The position numbers were made by a program, and so were the translations under genes. DNA of 64,000 nt from Thalassobaculaceae bacterium (lineage in GTDB: Bacteria; Pseudomonadota; Alphaproteobacteria; Thalassobaculales; Thalassobaculaceae), in the NCBI GenBank assembly GCA_965228875.1, contig OZ245843.1, forward strand, positions 1,284,616-1,348,615, in the 5' to 3' direction. Positions 27,383-33,733 of the stretch are shown in pieces. The notes under the pieces are model-generated. The model was not told the origin of the DNA, did not search any database, and saw only the letters and a program-made list of their open reading frames with translations. Numbering within the stretch: position 1 is the stretch's first letter; each line of letters starts with the position of its first letter.

Positions 27383-28135
27383 ATGACCGCATCGACGACC
27401 GACGCAGACATCGACGAATTCGCCGCCCAGGTCGCCTACGTGATCCACAACGCGGCGCCCTCCCCCTGGCCGTATCCGCATCTGCGAATGCAGCCGCTGC
27501 TGCCGCCGGCGCTGTACGAGTCCCTGAGCGGTCTCGAACTCGCGAGCGACACGCTGGTCTCGCACGTCTACGGGGTCGAGGACACCAAGTCGGAGCAGAA
27601 CCGGTTCTCGCTCGACTACTCCGCCGCCGACCTCTCCGCCGGACGGGTCACGGTGCCGGAGCTGGAGCGCGCCTACCGCGTGCTCAGTCATTCGCTGGTC
27701 CGCAACGCCCTGCTGGGGCGATTCCGGGACGAGGTCGCCAAGCGGTACGCCAAGCTCCAGGTCACCCTCGACACGGCATTCTACTACATCGAGGACTCGA
27801 CGGGGTACGAACTGCTGCCGCACACCGATACGGACTCCAAGGCGGTCACGCTGCTGATCTACCTGGCCCGCGAAGGCGACAACCCCGAGCTCGGAACCCA
27901 CCTGTACGTGCCGCGGAACCCGCAACTGTACGACGTCCAGGCCGCCTCCTCCGCGCGCTACCGGCGCGAGGCGTTCTACTCCGCCTGCAGCGTGCCGTTC
28001 CGGCCGAACGCCGCCGTCGCCTTCGCGCCGTCGAAGCGGACCTTCCACGGCGTCCCGGCGGTGCATCATGGCGACCGGCGGCGGCGACTGATTCAGTTCC
28101 AGCTTCTCGCCCGCCCGGCGGTGAAGCCGGCCTGA
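27383..28135 (+). CDS. Hypothetical 2OG-Fe(II) oxygenase-like protein
   Basis: PWPY N-terminus, LLPHTD (HxD), VTLLIYL, FHGV distal His, terminal Arg. Confidence 0.65.
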   Translation: MTASTTDADIDEFAAQVAYVIHNAAPSPWPYPHLRMQPLLPPALYESLSGLELASDTLVSHVYGVEDTKSEQNRFSLDYSAADLSAGRVTVPELERAYRVLSHSLVRNALLGRFRDEVAKRYAKLQVTLDTAFYYIEDSTGYELLPHTDTDSKAVTLLIYLAREGDNPELGTHLYVPRNPQLYDVQAASSARYRREAFYSACSVPFRPNAAVAFAPSKRTFHGVPAVHHGDRRRRLIQFQLLARPAVKPA

Positions 28136-28647: not shown

Positions 28648-29079
28648 CTACCCGTACAACGCCTCTGCCCGGTCCTCGAACGCCTGGACCATCCGGCGAA
28701 CGGCCTCGTTGAAGAACAGCCCCATCACCCGCTGAAGCACCACGTTCTTGAACTCGAAATCGACGTAGAAGTCGATCAGGCAACCGCTTTCGTCCTCGAG
28801 GAAGAGCCAGTGGTTGTTCAGATACCGGAACGGGCCGTCGCTGTAGGTCACGTCGATCCGCATCGCCTCGGGGTGCAGTTCGACGCGCGAGGTGAATCGT
28901 TCGCGGATCATCTTATAGCCGATCATCAGGTCGGCCCAGAAGACGTTGCCCTCGCGCTTCTTGACCCGTGCGCCGACGCACCAGGGCAGGAATTCCGGAT
29001 ACCGGTCGACGCCGGCGACCAGCGCGTACATCTGCTCCGGCGAATACGGAACGATGCGCTTTTCGGCGTGAGTCGGCAT
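28648..29079 (-). CDS. ratA: RatA/PasT (Coq10-like START domain) protein
   Basis: YSPEQMYALV, YPEFLPWC, GPFRYLNNHW, AFEDRA. Confidence 0.9.
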   Translation of the reverse strand: MPTHAEKRIVPYSPEQMYALVAGVDRYPEFLPWCVGARVKKREGNVFWADLMIGYKMIRERFTSRVELHPEAMRIDVTYSDGPFRYLNNHWLFLEDESGCLIDFYVDFEFKNVVLQRVMGLFFNEAVRRMVQAFEDRAEALYG

Positions 29080-29098
29080 TCCGGGCGTATCGGGCGGG

Positions 29099-30097
29099 TT
29101 ATTCGGCGGCGGTAGCCGGGGCCGGCGCGGACAGCGCCTGCGCCTCGGAGACGGGCTTTCCCGCAAGCCGGGCGTCGCGGGCAGCGCGCAGCCTGGCGAA
29201 GTCGTCGCCGGCGAAATAGGAGGACCGGGTCAGCGGCGAGGCCGAGACCATCAGAAACCCCTTGTTGTACGCCCGCCGCTTGTAGCTCTCGAACTCGTCC
29301 GGCGTGACGAACCGGTCGACCACATGGTGCTTCGGCGTCGGTTGCAGGTACTGGCCGATGGTCAGGAAATCCACCTCGGCCGAGCGCAGGTCGTCCATCA
29401 CCTGCAGCACCTCCTCCTGGCTCTCGCCGAGCCCGACCATGATGCCGGACTTGGTGAACATGGAAGGGTCCATCTCCTTGACCTGATGCAGGAGGTGCAG
29501 CGAGCCGAAATAGCGCGCACCGGGCCGCACTTCGCCGTAGAGGCGCGGCACCGTCTCCAGGTTGTGGTTGAACACGTCGGGCTTCGCGCCGACGACAATC
29601 GCCAGCGCGTCCTTCTTGCGCCGGAAGTCGGGGGTGAGCACCTCGATCGTCGTGCCCGGCGAGGCGTGGCGGATGCGCAGGATGGTCTCTGCGAAATGCC
29701 CCGCCCCGCCGTCCACAAGGTCGTCGCGGTCGACGGAGGTGATGACCACGTGGTTCAGGCCGAGCCTGGCGACCGATTTAGCCACGTTCTCCGGCTCGTG
29801 CGGGTCGAGCTGGTCCGGGCGGCCGGTGGCGATGTTGCAGAACGAGCAGGCCCGCGTGCAGACCGAGCCCAGGATCATCATCGTCGCGTGCTTCTTGGAC
29901 CAGCACTCGCCGATGTTCGGACAGGCCGCCTCCTCGCACACGGTGTGGAGGTTGTGGTCGCGCATGATCTTGCGCGTCTCGTGATACGTCGCCGAGGTCG
30001 GCGCCTTCACCCGGATCCACTCGGGCTTGCGCTTGTGCACCGGATTGTCCGGCTTGTGCGCCTTCTCGGGGTGGCGGATTTTTTGCAGTTCTTTCAT
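29099..30097 (-). CDS. lipA: Lipoyl synthase
   Basis: [25 protein letters not shown]. Confidence 0.98.
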
Positions 30098-30492
30098 GTT
30101 GCATCCACTACTGCAGACTCATCGTGCTCTTCATCGCTCGTCAGAACAAACTTTCTCCACACCGATACTTTCCACAGCACAGCTATGTAATCTGTACTCC
30201 CCCAAATGGACTTATTTCTACCCCAATAGAAAAAATGCGACCTACTACCAGAGGAATTTTTTCGTACTCTGGATTTTCCATCTTTTGTGTAAAGGACAAC
30301 TGTGTCTCCGGCATTCACAGACTGATCGGGGAACCAGAACGCGTCCGAATCGCCCGATAACGGTAAATCGCCCCGCTGTTCAGATCGAACAGCTGCGTAG
30401 TCGCCTACGTCTCCGTCCTCCAGAACCCGCAGCACCATTCGCTCTGATTCTAGCGAGTCTGCACCCACGATTGATTGAATTTCGAGGATCAT
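30094..30492 (-). CDS. Hypothetical low-GC protein, lamin-tail-domain-like pattern (132 aa)
   Basis: ATG 30492 overlaps upstream TGA and its TGA overlaps lipA ATG; FWFP..V.AGD.VVLYT..G..FYWG..IW pattern. Confidence 0.7.
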
Positions 30493-30938
30493 TTTTTCAT
30501 GTACCTCGACACTAAGCCTACGCACAGTGCAACAACACCGATTACGCCAAATCGATCAATGGCTCCATCTTGAAAACCAAGACCTATCAAGACGGACCCA
30601 ATGGCAACGAGTGCCGTCGAAGAAGCTTCTAGTGCGATCTTCTGCGTATTCTGGCTCCGAAAGACGGCATTTTCTTTGTCAGCTTCATAGAACCGACCTT
30701 CAACGATCTTCAATCGAGCGTTTTCTGTTTCAAGTTGCTCGACTTCATCCATAAGAAATCGTTGAACAGCAGGATGGCGAACCTCCTCTTCCGTCAGATC
30801 ACGATCAGCACGCTGAAGAAACGCTCTCGGCTTCTTCTGTTTCTGGCCCGCATTTTCCTCACCGGCGATTGATCCGTCGCCTGAATCAAGCTCGAGGTTG
30901 GGAGCCTCTTCGTCATCTCTAGGACTTCTGGACGCCAA
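30489..30938 (-). CDS. Hypothetical low-GC coiled-coil protein with two C-terminal TM helices (149 aa)
   Basis: TTG start 26 nt after lpdA stop; heptad-like LMDEVEQLETENARLK; two hydrophobic C-terminal segments. Confidence 0.7.
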   Translation of the reverse strand: MASRSPRDDEEAPNLELDSGDGSIAGEENAGQKQKKPRAFLQRADRDLTEEEVRHPAVQRFLMDEVEQLETENARLKIVEGRFYEADKENAVFRSQNTQKIALEASSTALVAIGSVLIGLGFQDGAIDRFGVIGVVALCVGLVSRYMKK

Positions 30939-30964
30939 AGGCTCACTCGCTTCGATTTCGCTTT

Positions 30965-32377
30965 CTAGAAATGGATCGCCCGTCCATACGCGTCAAGCAC
31001 CGACTCGTGCATCATCTCGCTCAGGGTCGGGTGCGGGAAGATGGTGTGCATCAGCTCCGCCTCCGTGGTCTCCAGCGTCATGGCCACGCCGTAGCCCTGG
31101 ATCAGCTCGGTCACCTCGGCGCCGATCATGTGCGCCCCCAGCAGTTCGCCGGTCTTGGCGTCGAACACGGTCTTCACCATGCCCTCGGGCTCGCCGAGCG
31201 CGATCGCCTTGCCGTTGCCGATGAACGGAAAGCGGCCGACCTTGAGCTCGTGCCCGCGCTCCTTGGCCTGTGCCTCGGTGAGGCCGACGCTGGCGATCTG
31301 CGGGCGGCAGTAGGTGCAGCCCGGCACCAGATCGGTGTTCAGCGGGTGCAGGCCCTTCACGCCGGCGATCTTCTCGACGCAGAGCACGCCCTCGTGGCTG
31401 GCCTTGTGGGCGAGCCAGGGCGGGCCGGTCAGGTCGCCGATGGCGTAGACGCCGGGCTCCCCGGTCTCCAGCCACTCGTTGGTGACAACGTGGGTCTTCT
31501 CGACCTTCACCTTGGTCCCTTCGAGACCGATATCCTCCACATTGCCGACGATGCCGACCGCCAGGATCACCCGGTCGACCTCCAGGGTCTCCTTCTTGCC
31601 CTTCACCTCGATCTCGGCCTTGGCCCCCTTCGAGGTGGCCTCGAGCTTGTGGACCTTGGCGGCGGTGTGGACCTTCATACCCTGTTTGGTGAACTGCTTC
31701 AGCGCGAAGGCGGAGATCTCCGCGTCCTCGGCCGGCAGGATGCGGTCGACCACCTCAACGACGGTCACTTCCGCGCCCATGTCGTGGTGGAAGCTCGCGA
31801 ACTCCATGCCGATGGCGCCGGAGCCGATGACCAGCAGCTTCTTCGGCATCGTCTCGGGGACCATCGCCTCCTTGTAGGTGACGATCGTCTTGCCGTTCGG
31901 CTCCATGCCCGGAAGCGTGCGGGCGCGCGCACCGGTGGCCAGAATGACGTGCTTGGCAGTGTAGGTGCCGACCGCCTTGCCGTCCTTGGTCACCTCGACC
32001 TTGCGCAGCCCGCCGGAGGCTCCGGCCAGCTTGCCCTGGCCGTCGACCACGGTGACCTTGTTCTTCTTCAGCAGGTGGGCGACGCCCGAGGAGAGCTGCT
32101 TGGCGACCCCGCGCGAGCGTTTGACCACTTTCTGAAGATCGAACGATATGTCCTTGGCAGAAAAGCCATAAGCGTCGAGGTTCTGCAGGATGTGCCCGAC
32201 CTCTGAGGAACGCAGGAGCGCCTTGGTCGGGATACAGCCCCAGTTCAGGCAGATGCCGCCGAGGTGCTCGCGCTCGACCACCGCCGCCTTCATGCCGAGT
32301 TGGGCGGCGCGGATCGCGGCGACATAGCCGCCCGGCCCGCCGCCGACCACGATCACGTCGAATTGGGTATCGGCCAT
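30965..32377 (-). CDS. lpdA: Dihydrolipoyl dehydrogenase E3
   Basis: GGGPGGYVAAI, GGICLNWGCIP, HPTLSE. Confidence 0.98.
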   Translation of the reverse strand: MADTQFDVIVVGGGPGGYVAAIRAAQLGMKAAVVEREHLGGICLNWGCIPTKALLRSSEVGHILQNLDAYGFSAKDISFDLQKVVKRSRGVAKQLSSGVAHLLKKNKVTVVDGQGKLAGASGGLRKVEVTKDGKAVGTYTAKHVILATGARARTLPGMEPNGKTIVTYKEAMVPETMPKKLLVIGSGAIGMEFASFHHDMGAEVTVVEVVDRILPAEDAEISAFALKQFTKQGMKVHTAAKVHKLEATSKGAKAEIEVKGKKETLEVDRVILAVGIVGNVEDIGLEGTKVKVEKTHVVTNEWLETGEPGVYAIGDLTGPPWLAHKASHEGVLCVEKIAGVKGLHPLNTDLVPGCTYCRPQIASVGLTEAQAKERGHELKVGRFPFIGNGKAIALGEPEGMVKTVFDAKTGELLGAHMIGAEVTELIQGYGVAMTLETTEAELMHTIFPHPTLSEMMHESVLDAYGRAIHF

Positions 32378-32419
32378 CGGTTCTCTCCCTCTCCGCCGGA
32401 TGTCCCTGGGCGTCTCCGC

Positions 32420-33733
32420 CTAGAGCAGCATCGTCAGCGGGTCTTCGATCAGCTTCTTGAACGCCGCCAGGAACTCGGCCCCGACCGCGCCGTCGACCAC
32501 CCGATGGTCGACCGACAGCGTGCAGCTCATCACCGTGGCGACGGCCAGCGCGCCGTCCTTGACCACCGCCCGCTGCTCGCCGGCACCGACCGCCAGGATC
32601 GCGCCCTGGGGCGGGTTGATGACGGCCGCGAAGTCCTTGATGCCGAACATGCCGAGGTTGGAGATCGAGAAGGTCCCACCCTGGAACTCCTCGGGCGACA
32701 GCTTGCCGTCACGGGCCCGGGTGGCCAGGTCCTTCATCTCCGACGAGATCTGCTTTAGCCCCTTGGAACCGGCGTCGCGGATCACCGGGGTGATCAGCCC
32801 GCCCTCGATCGCCACGGCAACGGAGATGTCGACCTGGTCGTAGATCCGGATCGCTTTTTCGGTCCAGGTCGCGTTGGCCGCCGGCACCTGCTTCAGCGCG
32901 ATGGCCGAGGCCCGGATCACCAGATCGTTGACCGAGAGCTTGTAGGAGTCGCTCTTGGCGTTGAGGTCCTTACGGACCTTCAGCAGGTCGTCGATCTCGC
33001 AGTCGACCGTGAGGTAGAAATGCGGAGCGAACTGCTTCGACTCCGTCAGGCGCCGGGCGATGACCTTGCGCATGTTGGAGTTCGGGATCTCCTGATAGCT
33101 CGGCAGACCCGGAACATCGGGCGACGGCGCCTGGGCCGCCGGCGCTGCGGCGGCAGCGGGCGCCGCGGCCGCGGCGGGGGCGGCACCCTGGCCGGCGGCC
33201 TGCTTCGGCGCGCCGCCGGCGAGCGCCTTCTCGATATCGGCCTTCACGATTCGGCCGTTCGGACCGCTGCCGGCAATGCCGTTCAGGTCGAGCCCAGCCT
33301 GCTCCGCCATCCGGCGGGCCAGCGGGCTTGCGAACACCCGACCGCCGCTGTTCGCGGCCGCCGGTGCCGCCGGAGCTTGCGCCGCCGGAGCGGGGGTCTC
33401 AGCCGACGCAGGTTCGGGCTTCGGCTCCTCCGTCGCCGGTGCAGGCGCCGGCGCATCGCCGCCATCGGCCGGGATGTCGTCGGCGCTCTCGCCCTCTTCG
33501 AGCAGGTAGGCGATGACCGCGTTCACGGCCACGCCCTCGGTGCCGTCGGCGACGACGATCTTGCCGATCGTCCCCTCGTCGACAGCTTCCACTTCCATGG
33601 TCGCCTTGTCGGTCTCGATCTCGGCGAGCACGTCGCCGGCGGAAACCGTGTCGCCCTCTTTCACCATCCACTTGGCGAGGTTGCCCTCGGTCATGGTCGG
33701 CGACAGGGCCGGCATCAAAATCGGAACTGGCAT
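32420..33733 (-). CDS. pdhC: PDH dihydrolipoamide acetyltransferase E2
   Basis: Lipoyl ETDKAT, ASPLARR, DHRVVDG. Confidence 0.97.
   Translation of the reverse strand: MPVPILMPALSPTMTEGNLAKWMVKEGDTVSAGDVLAEIETDKATMEVEAVDEGTIGKIVVADGTEGVAVNAVIAYLLEEGESADDIPADGGDAPAPAPATEEPKPEPASAETPAPAAQAPAAPAAANSGGRVFASPLARRMAEQAGLDLNGIAGSGPNGRIVKADIEKALAGGAPKQAAGQGAAPAAAAAPAAAAAPAAQAPSPDVPGLPSYQEIPNSNMRKVIARRLTESKQFAPHFYLTVDCEIDDLLKVRKDLNAKSDSYKLSVNDLVIRASAIALKQVPAANATWTEKAIRIYDQVDISVAVAIEGGLITPVIRDAGSKGLKQISSEMKDLATRARDGKLSPEEFQGGTFSISNLGMFGIKDFAAVINPPQGAILAVGAGEQRAVVKDGALAVATVMSCTLSVDHRVVDGAVGAEFLAAFKKLIEDPLTMLL

Follow-up and report, generated by a model that had tools for sequence, protein, structure and literature searches.

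Why do two short genes of low guanine-plus-cytosine (GC) content stand between lpdA and lipA in a Thalassobaculaceae bacterium, and what might their products do? The genes, here called A and B, lie in a 64,000-nt stretch of contig OZ245843.1 (the window), and coordinates given without a locus label are positions within it. The original prediction, made from the letters alone, had proposed the pair as an undescribed system, either a sensor-effector antiphage module or a membrane scaffold. Our results indicate that A and B belong to two protein families that, to judge from gene order and alignments, form a conserved, co-inherited and translationally coupled unit moving between phyla. We tentatively favor the possibility, to which we give somewhat less than an even chance, that A-B is an undescribed, horizontally mobile two-gene exclusion or defense module directed against phages or mobile elements.

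Conservation and distribution of the A-B pair

The genes lpdA, A, B and lipA follow one another consecutively on the minus strand. Gene A (positions 30489 to 30938, minus strand) is an open reading frame (ORF) of 149 amino acids (aa) with a TTG start, and gene B (positions 30094 to 30492, minus strand) is an ORF of 132 aa with an ATG start. The stop codon of A and the start codon of B overlap in ATGA at 30489 to 30492, and the stop codon of B and the present start codon of lipA overlap in ATGA at 30094 to 30097; both overlaps, already noted in the original prediction, were read directly on the minus strand, and the second is found in this genome only.

Homologs of B were collected by a pattern scan in which one genome was kept per species, giving 20 genome loci. 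An A-like ORF of ~140 to 160 aa lies directly upstream of B in 18/20 of these loci, and the four-base overlap between the two genes is retained in at least 16 of the 18. Among 10 loci from the viral collection IMG/VR, A is present in the same 4-nt overlap in all nine that could be assessed, the tenth ending at a contig edge. When the scan was seeded with A instead, B was found downstream in 3/3 viral loci, one on a new contig and two on contigs already found. The proposed co-occurrence of A and B homologs was thus observed in both genomes and viral contigs. The distance matrices of A and B correlate with r = 0.705 over 24 pairs, with 0/2,000 permutations as high, and we read this correlation as co-inheritance and not as binding. 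B is present as a single copy in each of the 15 genomes checked.

The labels of the 20 loci include Acidobacteriaceae, Ensifer, Shinella, Vibrio, Burkholderia, Thermomonas and Spirochaetia, as well as Chryseobacterium, Algoriphagus, Ignavibacteria, Gemmatimonadales, Planctomycetota and Krumholzibacteriia, among others. B was found in 0/40 relatives of the window genome and in 0/400 other genomes sampled from the phylum. The source names that were looked up for family members all read "hypothetical protein."

In locus L008, A and B are fused by a loss of frame within the transmembrane (TM) region of A. This fusion (L008:5533-6378) and a second one, P0193, are independent of each other, and in each the frame loss lies in the TM1-TM2 part of A and leads into B; A may have been inactivated, or the sequences may equally well be in error. 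A solo copy of B in Chryseobacterium populi (L010:6001-6366) carries all family motifs intact.

Genomic contexts of A-B loci

Contexts were read without a control set with respect to prophages and mobile DNA. Structural genes surround the pair in four distinct viral contigs. In L032 its neighbors are the genes for the large terminase and the portal, both on the other strand; in L033 a neck or minor-head gene lies on one side and a head-protease gene on the other; in L034 the pair separates the portal gene from the major-head gene; and in L040 it is flanked by the integrase side and by the tape measure gene. The same arrangement, typical of the accessory prophage genes called morons, is seen in a Shinella prophage (L021). 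In L034 (4244-4528), A is preceded on its own strand, at a distance of 17 nt, by a gene for a 95-aa helix-turn-helix (HTH) regulator; this arrangement occurs in one viral lineage, represented by six IMG/VR loci that are near-identical and have a GC content of 0.39, and is not found in the other loci. Genes of mobile elements lie within 6 kb of A-B in L003, L004, L005, L006, L014, L015 and L017. Loci other than those in prophages and viral contigs have insertion sequence (IS) elements, RepA and a conjugative coupling protein, a Toprim primase, a serine recombinase or an integrase fragment nearby.

Neighbors within ~5 kb were compared with PADLOC at a cutoff of E ≤ 1e-8, and 11/20 loci had such neighbors. 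These include Hachiman HamB, Old together with Wadjet JetABC, type I restriction-modification and GmrSD-like proteins, CBASS NucC/TRIP13, Uzume, PD-Lambda-2_B and PDC-S13. One A-B pair lies downstream of a Hachiman helicase gene, another shares its locus with CBASS, NACHT and PDC-M29 genes, and a third is near Uzume and GmrSD-like genes. In L009 (5525-6372), A-B is located between hsdM and a second DNA methylase gene, in a type I restriction-modification cluster on a single strand, and the solo B of L010 is wedged between an Old-family nuclease gene and Wadjet jetABC. The association with defense genes is only suggestive.

Control regions of equal size were chosen 40 kb away on the same contig by a rule set beforehand, with positions 100000-109800 of contig C1 serving as the fallback for two genomes. 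Three of the control regions had strong hits, namely, IetAS and a reverse transcriptase (L065), a type I restriction endonuclease and HEC-05 (L066), and DrmMI or type IIG (L068), and A-B in these three genomes may reside within large defense- or mobile-rich regions.

Recent insertion of the pair between lpdA and lipA

Both flanking genes, lpdA and lipA, are present in all 10 other genomes of the same genus, and the lpdA-lipA gap is 82 to 84 nt long and cassette-free in 8/8 same-genus genomes in which the junction was measured. Homology with the genus stops at 30078 and restarts at 30967, delimiting a foreign insert of 888 bp (positions 30079 to 30966; GC 0.488) that was swapped in for the 82-bp ancestral spacer. 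The replaced piece comprised the ribosome-binding region, the start and the first 13 codons of lipA. Compared with the spacer sequences of the relatives, lipA of the window begins with seven codons derived from the insert (MKELQKI; positions 30077 to 30097, minus strand), which precede the RHPEK motif common to the relatives, and its translation is predicted to start within the stop codon of B. The stop codon of lpdA is TAG in the window genome versus TGA in the relatives. Because the insert replaced the ribosome-binding region, start and 13 codons of lipA, simple loss of the cassette would cost lipoate synthesis.

Metagenome data contain the site in both states. Contigs of runs X3, X5 and X1 carry the empty site, in which 30078 is joined to 30967 with 82 letters between them, and the empty-site contig of seawater run X3 differs from the flanks of the window at only 5/397 and 9/434 positions (~98% identical). 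The filled site, with both of its junctions, is covered by a contig of run X1 that has 0 differences; an assembly artifact was rejected on this ground, though the run may be the same data as the assembly. Run X1 thus has contigs of the filled and of the empty site (the empty one at a depth of 5 versus 7.7), which points to a mixed sample or to a close relative sequenced along with it. No sequence of run X24, which has the same species label, could be placed here, although this does not prove absence. The flanks of the empty site are nearly identical to those of the window, and acquisition therefore took place at the level of the strain and is unameliorated. As far as these comparisons can date it, the cassette is a very recent horizontal acquisition in this strain. 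The cassette occurs in only two runs, which come from one study that is possibly the source of the assembly, and in none of the RNA runs.

The base composition of the cassette agrees with a foreign origin and with the low GC content originally described. In 200-nt windows of positions 30100 to 30900, GC content is 0.425 to 0.54, versus 0.63 to 0.72 in the flanks, and overall it is 0.49 in the insert versus ~0.68 in the flanks. The bin from 30001 to 31000 has the lowest value (0.505) of 64 one-kilobase bins, the remaining bins ranging from 0.624 to 0.740. GC content and GC content at third codon positions (GC3) are 0.49 and 0.44 for gene A and 0.49 and 0.47 for gene B, and GC3 is 0.91 for lipA, 0.92 for lpdA and 0.89 for pdhC. 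The composition of A-B lies far outside the chance variation of the 64-kb window.

As the original prediction had it, there is no mobility gene inside the insert, nor is there one close by in a Pfam scan of the window genes, and the insert ends have no convincing terminal repeats or target duplications. Origin as an integron cassette was considered and dropped, because the gap between the stop codon of B and lipA is too small for an attC site. A blastn search with the 888-bp insert gave no match among plasmids, and no close donor was found, the best relatives of B being 45% identical in the metagenome scan, which gave one locus, and 51% identical in the protein collection.

Expression of the cassette probably depends on its host operon. 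The 26-nt spacer from the lpdA stop codon to the TTG of A (positions 30939 to 30964, minus strand) contains no promoter-like site, a sigma-70 scan of positions 29000 to 32500 gave 0 promoter sites, and terminator-like sites around the cassette are no more common than expected from shuffled sequence. We infer that the promoterless cassette is transcribed by read-through from the pyruvate dehydrogenase operon; this copy of A-B would rely on read-through because it lacks a promoter of its own. The chaining of the pair into an essential operon, which the original prediction had described, is real at this locus and peculiar to this strain, and it is not a property of the family. The insertion provides a clean natural case of a promoterless cassette entrenched in an essential operon.

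Protein B has a lamin-tail fold in its predicted structure

The model of B (mean predicted local distance difference test [pLDDT] score of 91.5) is an eight-stranded beta-sandwich without helices that opens with a beta-strand at residue 3, and the protein carries an acidic C-terminal tail. The expectation of a soluble, beta-rich protein is thus supported. Its 40 homologs are 35 to 51% identical to it, and the invariant columns of the family include E17, R18, W53, F54, D63, Y68, K70, G72, H86-W90 and W97.

In a Foldseek search of the PDB with the model of B, ranks 1 to 16 were all taken by lamin immunoglobulin-like (Ig-like) tail domains. With VIA-align, 11 lamin entries had Z scores of 9.8 to 8.2, versus 4.6 for the next entry, and in a wide search of 48,161 representative chains lamin B1 had a Z score of 8.9, versus 5.0 for the next. 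The model can be superposed on 91 to 93 residues of the Ig-like domains of lamins A/C, B1 and B2 with a root mean square deviation of 2.6 to 3.0 Å and stands clear of other Ig-like folds, the lamin tail (1ifr, 7crg, 7dtg, 3umn and others) being the sole fold above a Z score of 5.0. In these structural alignments, the sequence identity between B and the lamins is 13 to 19%. The nearest named cluster in the ESM Atlas is a PF00932 cluster (score of 0.86), a match that serves as a lead only.

The resemblance does not extend to family membership. An hmmscan of B up to an E value of 10, which covered the Pfam lamin-tail domain (LTD) family (PF00932; gathering score of 34.3 bits), returned 0 families, and PF00932 returned 0 candidates when the whole genome was searched in six frames. 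When the 41-sequence alignment of B was compared by hhalign with a shallow set of 10 bacterial LTDs from 9 genomes, the two aligned over 26 columns, out of register, with a probability of 4%. The profile of B had no significant match, and no lamin, among PDB sequences (best E value of 0.19), and the model had 0 matches at E ≤ 0.001 among the viral structures of BFVD. Neither Pfam, NCBIfam, PHROGs nor PADLOC contains a match to B of the window (0 PADLOC families at E values up to 10), and 0/40 of its homologs match PADLOC. Of the lamin-tail likeness first suggested from a sequence pattern, the fold stands and membership in PF00932 does not; the predicted structure supports B as a protein of lamin Ig-like fold outside the Pfam LTD family.

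Bacterial LTDs are described as parts of secreted or membrane-associated multidomain hydrolases in a report on such domains (PMC6085458). Unlike these LTDs, each one domain among several, B stands alone, is predicted to be cytosolic and has its own set of invariant motifs. Only one longer relative of B was found, a frame-lost A-B fusion, by a search that is weak evidence on this point.

Architecture of protein A

In the AlphaFold2 model of A (mean pLDDT of 84.2), residues 1 to 38 are unstructured (pLDDT of 51 to 55 over residues 1 to 30), and residues 1 to 35 have a net charge of -5, in line with the acidic disordered N terminus that had been proposed. Two short helices flanking a conserved basic motif lie between this head and a single continuous predicted helix of 69 residues (residues 56 to 124; positions 30567 to 30773, minus strand; pLDDT of 90 to 98), which by hydropathy ends in TM1 (residues ~104 to 122). 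After a five-residue turn, a second helix contains TM2 (residues ~130 to 145 by hydropathy) and runs into a basic C-terminal tail with a net charge of +3 over its last 7 residues (residues 130 to 148; positions 30495 to 30551, minus strand). The family alignment has no Pro- or Gly-rich column at positions 58 to 103, and near-invariant Gly residues at positions 114, 119 and 134 fall in both TM helices. Hydropathy, the basic tail and the TM glycines fit a hairpin with both termini inside that would be built for tight packing. The predicted TM pair agrees with what had been read from the sequence. The long helix may form the proposed coiled coil, but its heptad periodicity is unclear, with a peak off the coiled-coil angle; the term "coiled coil" for A stays an inference.

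A word-based homolog search with A gave nothing, and its family was found through ORFs neighboring B and through profile searches. The profile of A matches 982 representative clusters at E ≤ 1e-3, of which 785 pass 1e-10; among the 150 clusters listed, almost all have a length of 136 to 165 aa. Two members of 211 aa (P0043 and P0066) have 2 or 3 tandem copies of the helical segment before the TM hairpin, and the length of the stalk therefore varies within the family.

A of the window has no match in Pfam, NCBIfam, PHROGs or PADLOC (0 PADLOC families at E values up to 10), and no Pfam family is consistently matched by the 120 members of the A family that were scanned. A Foldseek search with the model of A gave 0 matches at E ≤ 0.001, and its profile matched nothing among PDB sequences (best E value of 0.84). 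The best hit of the wide VIA search had a Z score of 7.8, and 730 chains reached a Z score of at least 5, all of them generic long helices or hairpins and all with values below the VIA level of meaning for helical models. In the PADLOC scan of the family, 8/110 members had a weak match, in every case to one model, LeoBC.

Comparison with known systems

No described system was matched when A and B of the window were compared with the component profile hidden Markov models of PADLOC-DB 2.0.0, as the original prediction of an undescribed system had anticipated. A full-text literature search, in which few subscription journals were covered, found no article linking a lamin-tail domain to antiphage defense. 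"Not described" refers here to this literature together with Pfam, NCBIfam, PHROGs and PADLOC.

By analogy, A-B would be kin to small prophage-borne modules that consist of one membrane protein and one cytosolic protein. RexAB of lambda and its relatives, expressed from the prophage, consists of two gene products, one cytosolic and the other a small membrane protein believed to depolarize the cell. A module of the RexAB type is reportedly present in Pseudomonas putida (PMC12894663). A-B has no Pfam, PHROGs or PADLOC sequence match to such a module, and gene order and protein sizes differ from those of RexAB. Sbash gp30/gp31 is said to be a prophage-encoded two-component defense similar to that of Butters (PMC6426596). 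Butters gp30 and gp31 are described as the interacting products of adjacent prophage genes, one predicted to be transmembrane and the other not, by which the lysogen is protected against heterotypic phages (PMC7542560). A-B resembles them in its moron-like position, in the lack of an enzymatic domain and in combining a membrane with a nonmembrane protein, but there is no sequence relation in the libraries used, and the number of TM helices and the fold of the partner differ.

In Kiwa, the membrane protein KwaA and its cytosolic partner KwaB are described as forming a membrane-associated complex that reacts when phage infection or conjugation alters the membrane (10.1101/2023.02.26.530102). A and B of the window, however, have no PADLOC match; A has two TM helices and a long stalk helix, and B is a beta-sandwich of the ~120-aa type. 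SNIPE is described as a constitutively membrane-located nuclease defense acting where phages inject their genomes (PMC13190303), and it provides a model for exclusion at the membrane; unlike SNIPE, A-B has no recognizable catalytic domain.

One weak lead at the sequence level concerns LeoBC, a dynamin-like protein (PADLOC PDLC03841). The eight family members of A noted above match the TM-hairpin part of its model with E values of 7e-5 to 9e-4, and hhalign aligns the A hairpin in register with two LeoBC homologs, including the Trp...Pro-x-Gly-Trp loop, over a short, hydrophobic stretch of 33 columns (E value of 4e-4; probability of 34%). A differs from LeoBC in that it lacks a GTPase domain (by Pfam) and is a quarter of the length, and A of the window has no match.

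Possible functions of the A-B pair

If A-B is an exclusion or defense module, it might operate as follows, the steps being drawn from its architecture and from analogy to Butters gp30/gp31, Kiwa and SNIPE. A would be an inner-membrane protein whose two ends both face the cytoplasm, and its 69-residue helix and glycine-rich TM hairpin would drive oligomerization. Cytosolic B, with its invariant aromatic cluster, would dock on the cytosolic part of A. The A-B assembly would then change in response to infection, signaled either at the membrane or through a phage protein to which B binds, and the output would be either permeabilization of the membrane (abortive infection) or a block to genome entry (exclusion). 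As a self-contained, accessory unit, A-B resembles the moron modules of prophages.

Several results weigh against such a role. Family scans detect neither an enzymatic domain nor a known sensor domain in A or B. Defense genes are found near A-B in 9/15 loci compared with 5/15 control regions of the same genomes (two-sided Fisher test, P = 0.27), so that the enrichment in defense islands that had been proposed as a check was not significant, and several of the PADLOC neighbor hits are to generic proteins such as methylases and kinases. The loci L011 (yicC, A-B, gmk) and L018 have only housekeeping neighbors. A tblastn search with B against 50,697 cultured-phage records and 72,556 PLSDB plasmids returned nothing. 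The Chryseobacterium genome of L010 has B and no A anywhere. The isoelectric point is not conserved in the B family (median of 6.4; above 8 in 11/41 and below 6 in 13/41), which therefore counts against a simple role in DNA binding. A of the window is itself an outlier, with 20 to 35% identity to other members, and its predicted periplasmic loop between TM1 and TM2 lacks the Trp, Pro and Gly-Trp positions conserved in the family; this divergent copy of A-B may work differently or may be decaying.

Two other explanations are, in our estimation, both unlikely. In one, A-B is an addiction module of the toxin-antitoxin kind, in which A would be a membrane-damaging toxin restrained by B and the pair would stabilize the elements that carry it, with no dedicated antiphage role. 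The compact, promoter-proximal and ATGA-coupled architecture, the co-inheritance of A and B and the presence of the pair on plasmid-like, integrative and conjugative element-like or IS-rich DNA (L003, L005, L006 and L014) are all consistent with addiction, and selection against a toxic A would fit the two fusions (L008 and P0193) that lost the frame in its TM region, which sequencing error would explain equally well. The order with the membrane protein first and the lack of a DNA-binding antitoxin domain are, however, unlike classical type II modules, Pfam detecting no HTH or other DNA-binding family in A or B, and the genome that keeps B alone shows the reverse of what loss of a toxin predicts, but only if B has another use. 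Toxin-antitoxin and abortive-infection functions are compatible with each other and not mutually exclusive. In the other explanation, which we likewise hold to be improbable, A tethers B under the inner membrane as an accessory without a part in conflict, such as a scaffold or stress pair. The nonsignificant association with defense genes relative to the control would suit such an accessory, as would the loci with only housekeeping neighbors, to which that of the window belongs; bacterial lamin-tail domains have been suggested to target membranes or membrane-associated structures (PMC6085458, citing Mans 2004), and the hairpin of A has generic matches to hairpins of the ESCRT-III/Vipp1 type at Z scores of 6.5 to 6.8, below the meaningful level for helical models. 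Yet the distribution of the pair is very patchy (absent from all 400 genomes sampled from the phylum), it is strain specific at the window locus, and its repeated residence in the structural modules of prophages is typical of conflict or conversion genes and not of housekeeping scaffolds.

That same residence raises the question of whether the pair serves the phage itself, as a holin/antiholin-like timer of lysis or as an accessory of virion assembly, its chromosomal copies being prophage debris. A is a small protein that resembles class II holins in its two TM helices and in having both termini predicted to be inside, and the four viral contigs place the pair in the company of head, portal and tail genes. 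But no endolysin, spanin or lysis gene is adjacent in the 20 genome and 4 viral loci (Pfam and PHROGs; only ORFs above 80 to 110 aa were scanned), the pair in L032 does not share the strand of the terminase and portal genes, many loci are without any phage genes, and neither the 50,697 cultured phage genomes nor any PHROGs family provides a match; we regard a life-cycle function as the faintest of the prospects considered here. A highly speculative reading, to which we attach very little probability, is that A-B is a split lamin-like assembly tethered to the membrane and forming, beneath the inner membrane, a lattice by which incoming phage or plasmid DNA, or the proteins piloting it, would be intercepted. 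A would contribute an acidic head, a basic patch, an oligomerizing helix and an anchor, and B the lamin-tail fold, B then representing a cytosolic prokaryotic branch of lamin tails that is nearer in structure to the lamins of eukaryotes than to the LTDs of secreted bacterial proteins. If true, this would bear on the origin of the lamin tail.

An exclusion or defense module thus remains the interpretation that we favor, with the reserve expressed at the outset. If A-B protects against phages or mobile DNA, it adds a defense or exclusion system made of two families unnamed in the libraries used, and this would be the first cytosolic, stand-alone role for a lamin-tail fold in bacteria. With ~270 aa in total and with its widespread distribution (the 982 clusters of A), the A-B family can be tested quickly.

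Neighboring genes

The downstream flank, lipA (lipoyl synthase; positions 29099 to 30097, minus strand), was identified by Pfam Radical_SAM and LIAS_N, and the upstream flank, lpdA (dihydrolipoyl dehydrogenase; positions 30965 to 32377, minus strand), was identified by Pyr_redox_2 and Pyr_redox_dim. By Pfam, the neighborhood consists of ispDF, pgpA, cinA, an SRPBCC gene, lipA, lpdA and the genes for pyruvate dehydrogenase E2 and E1-beta. No Rfam element is matched at the cassette. A 250-aa ORF in the interval between pgpA and cinA (positions 27383 to 28132, plus strand) matches no Pfam family at E ≤ 1e-5 and has a GC content of ~0.61 at its start.

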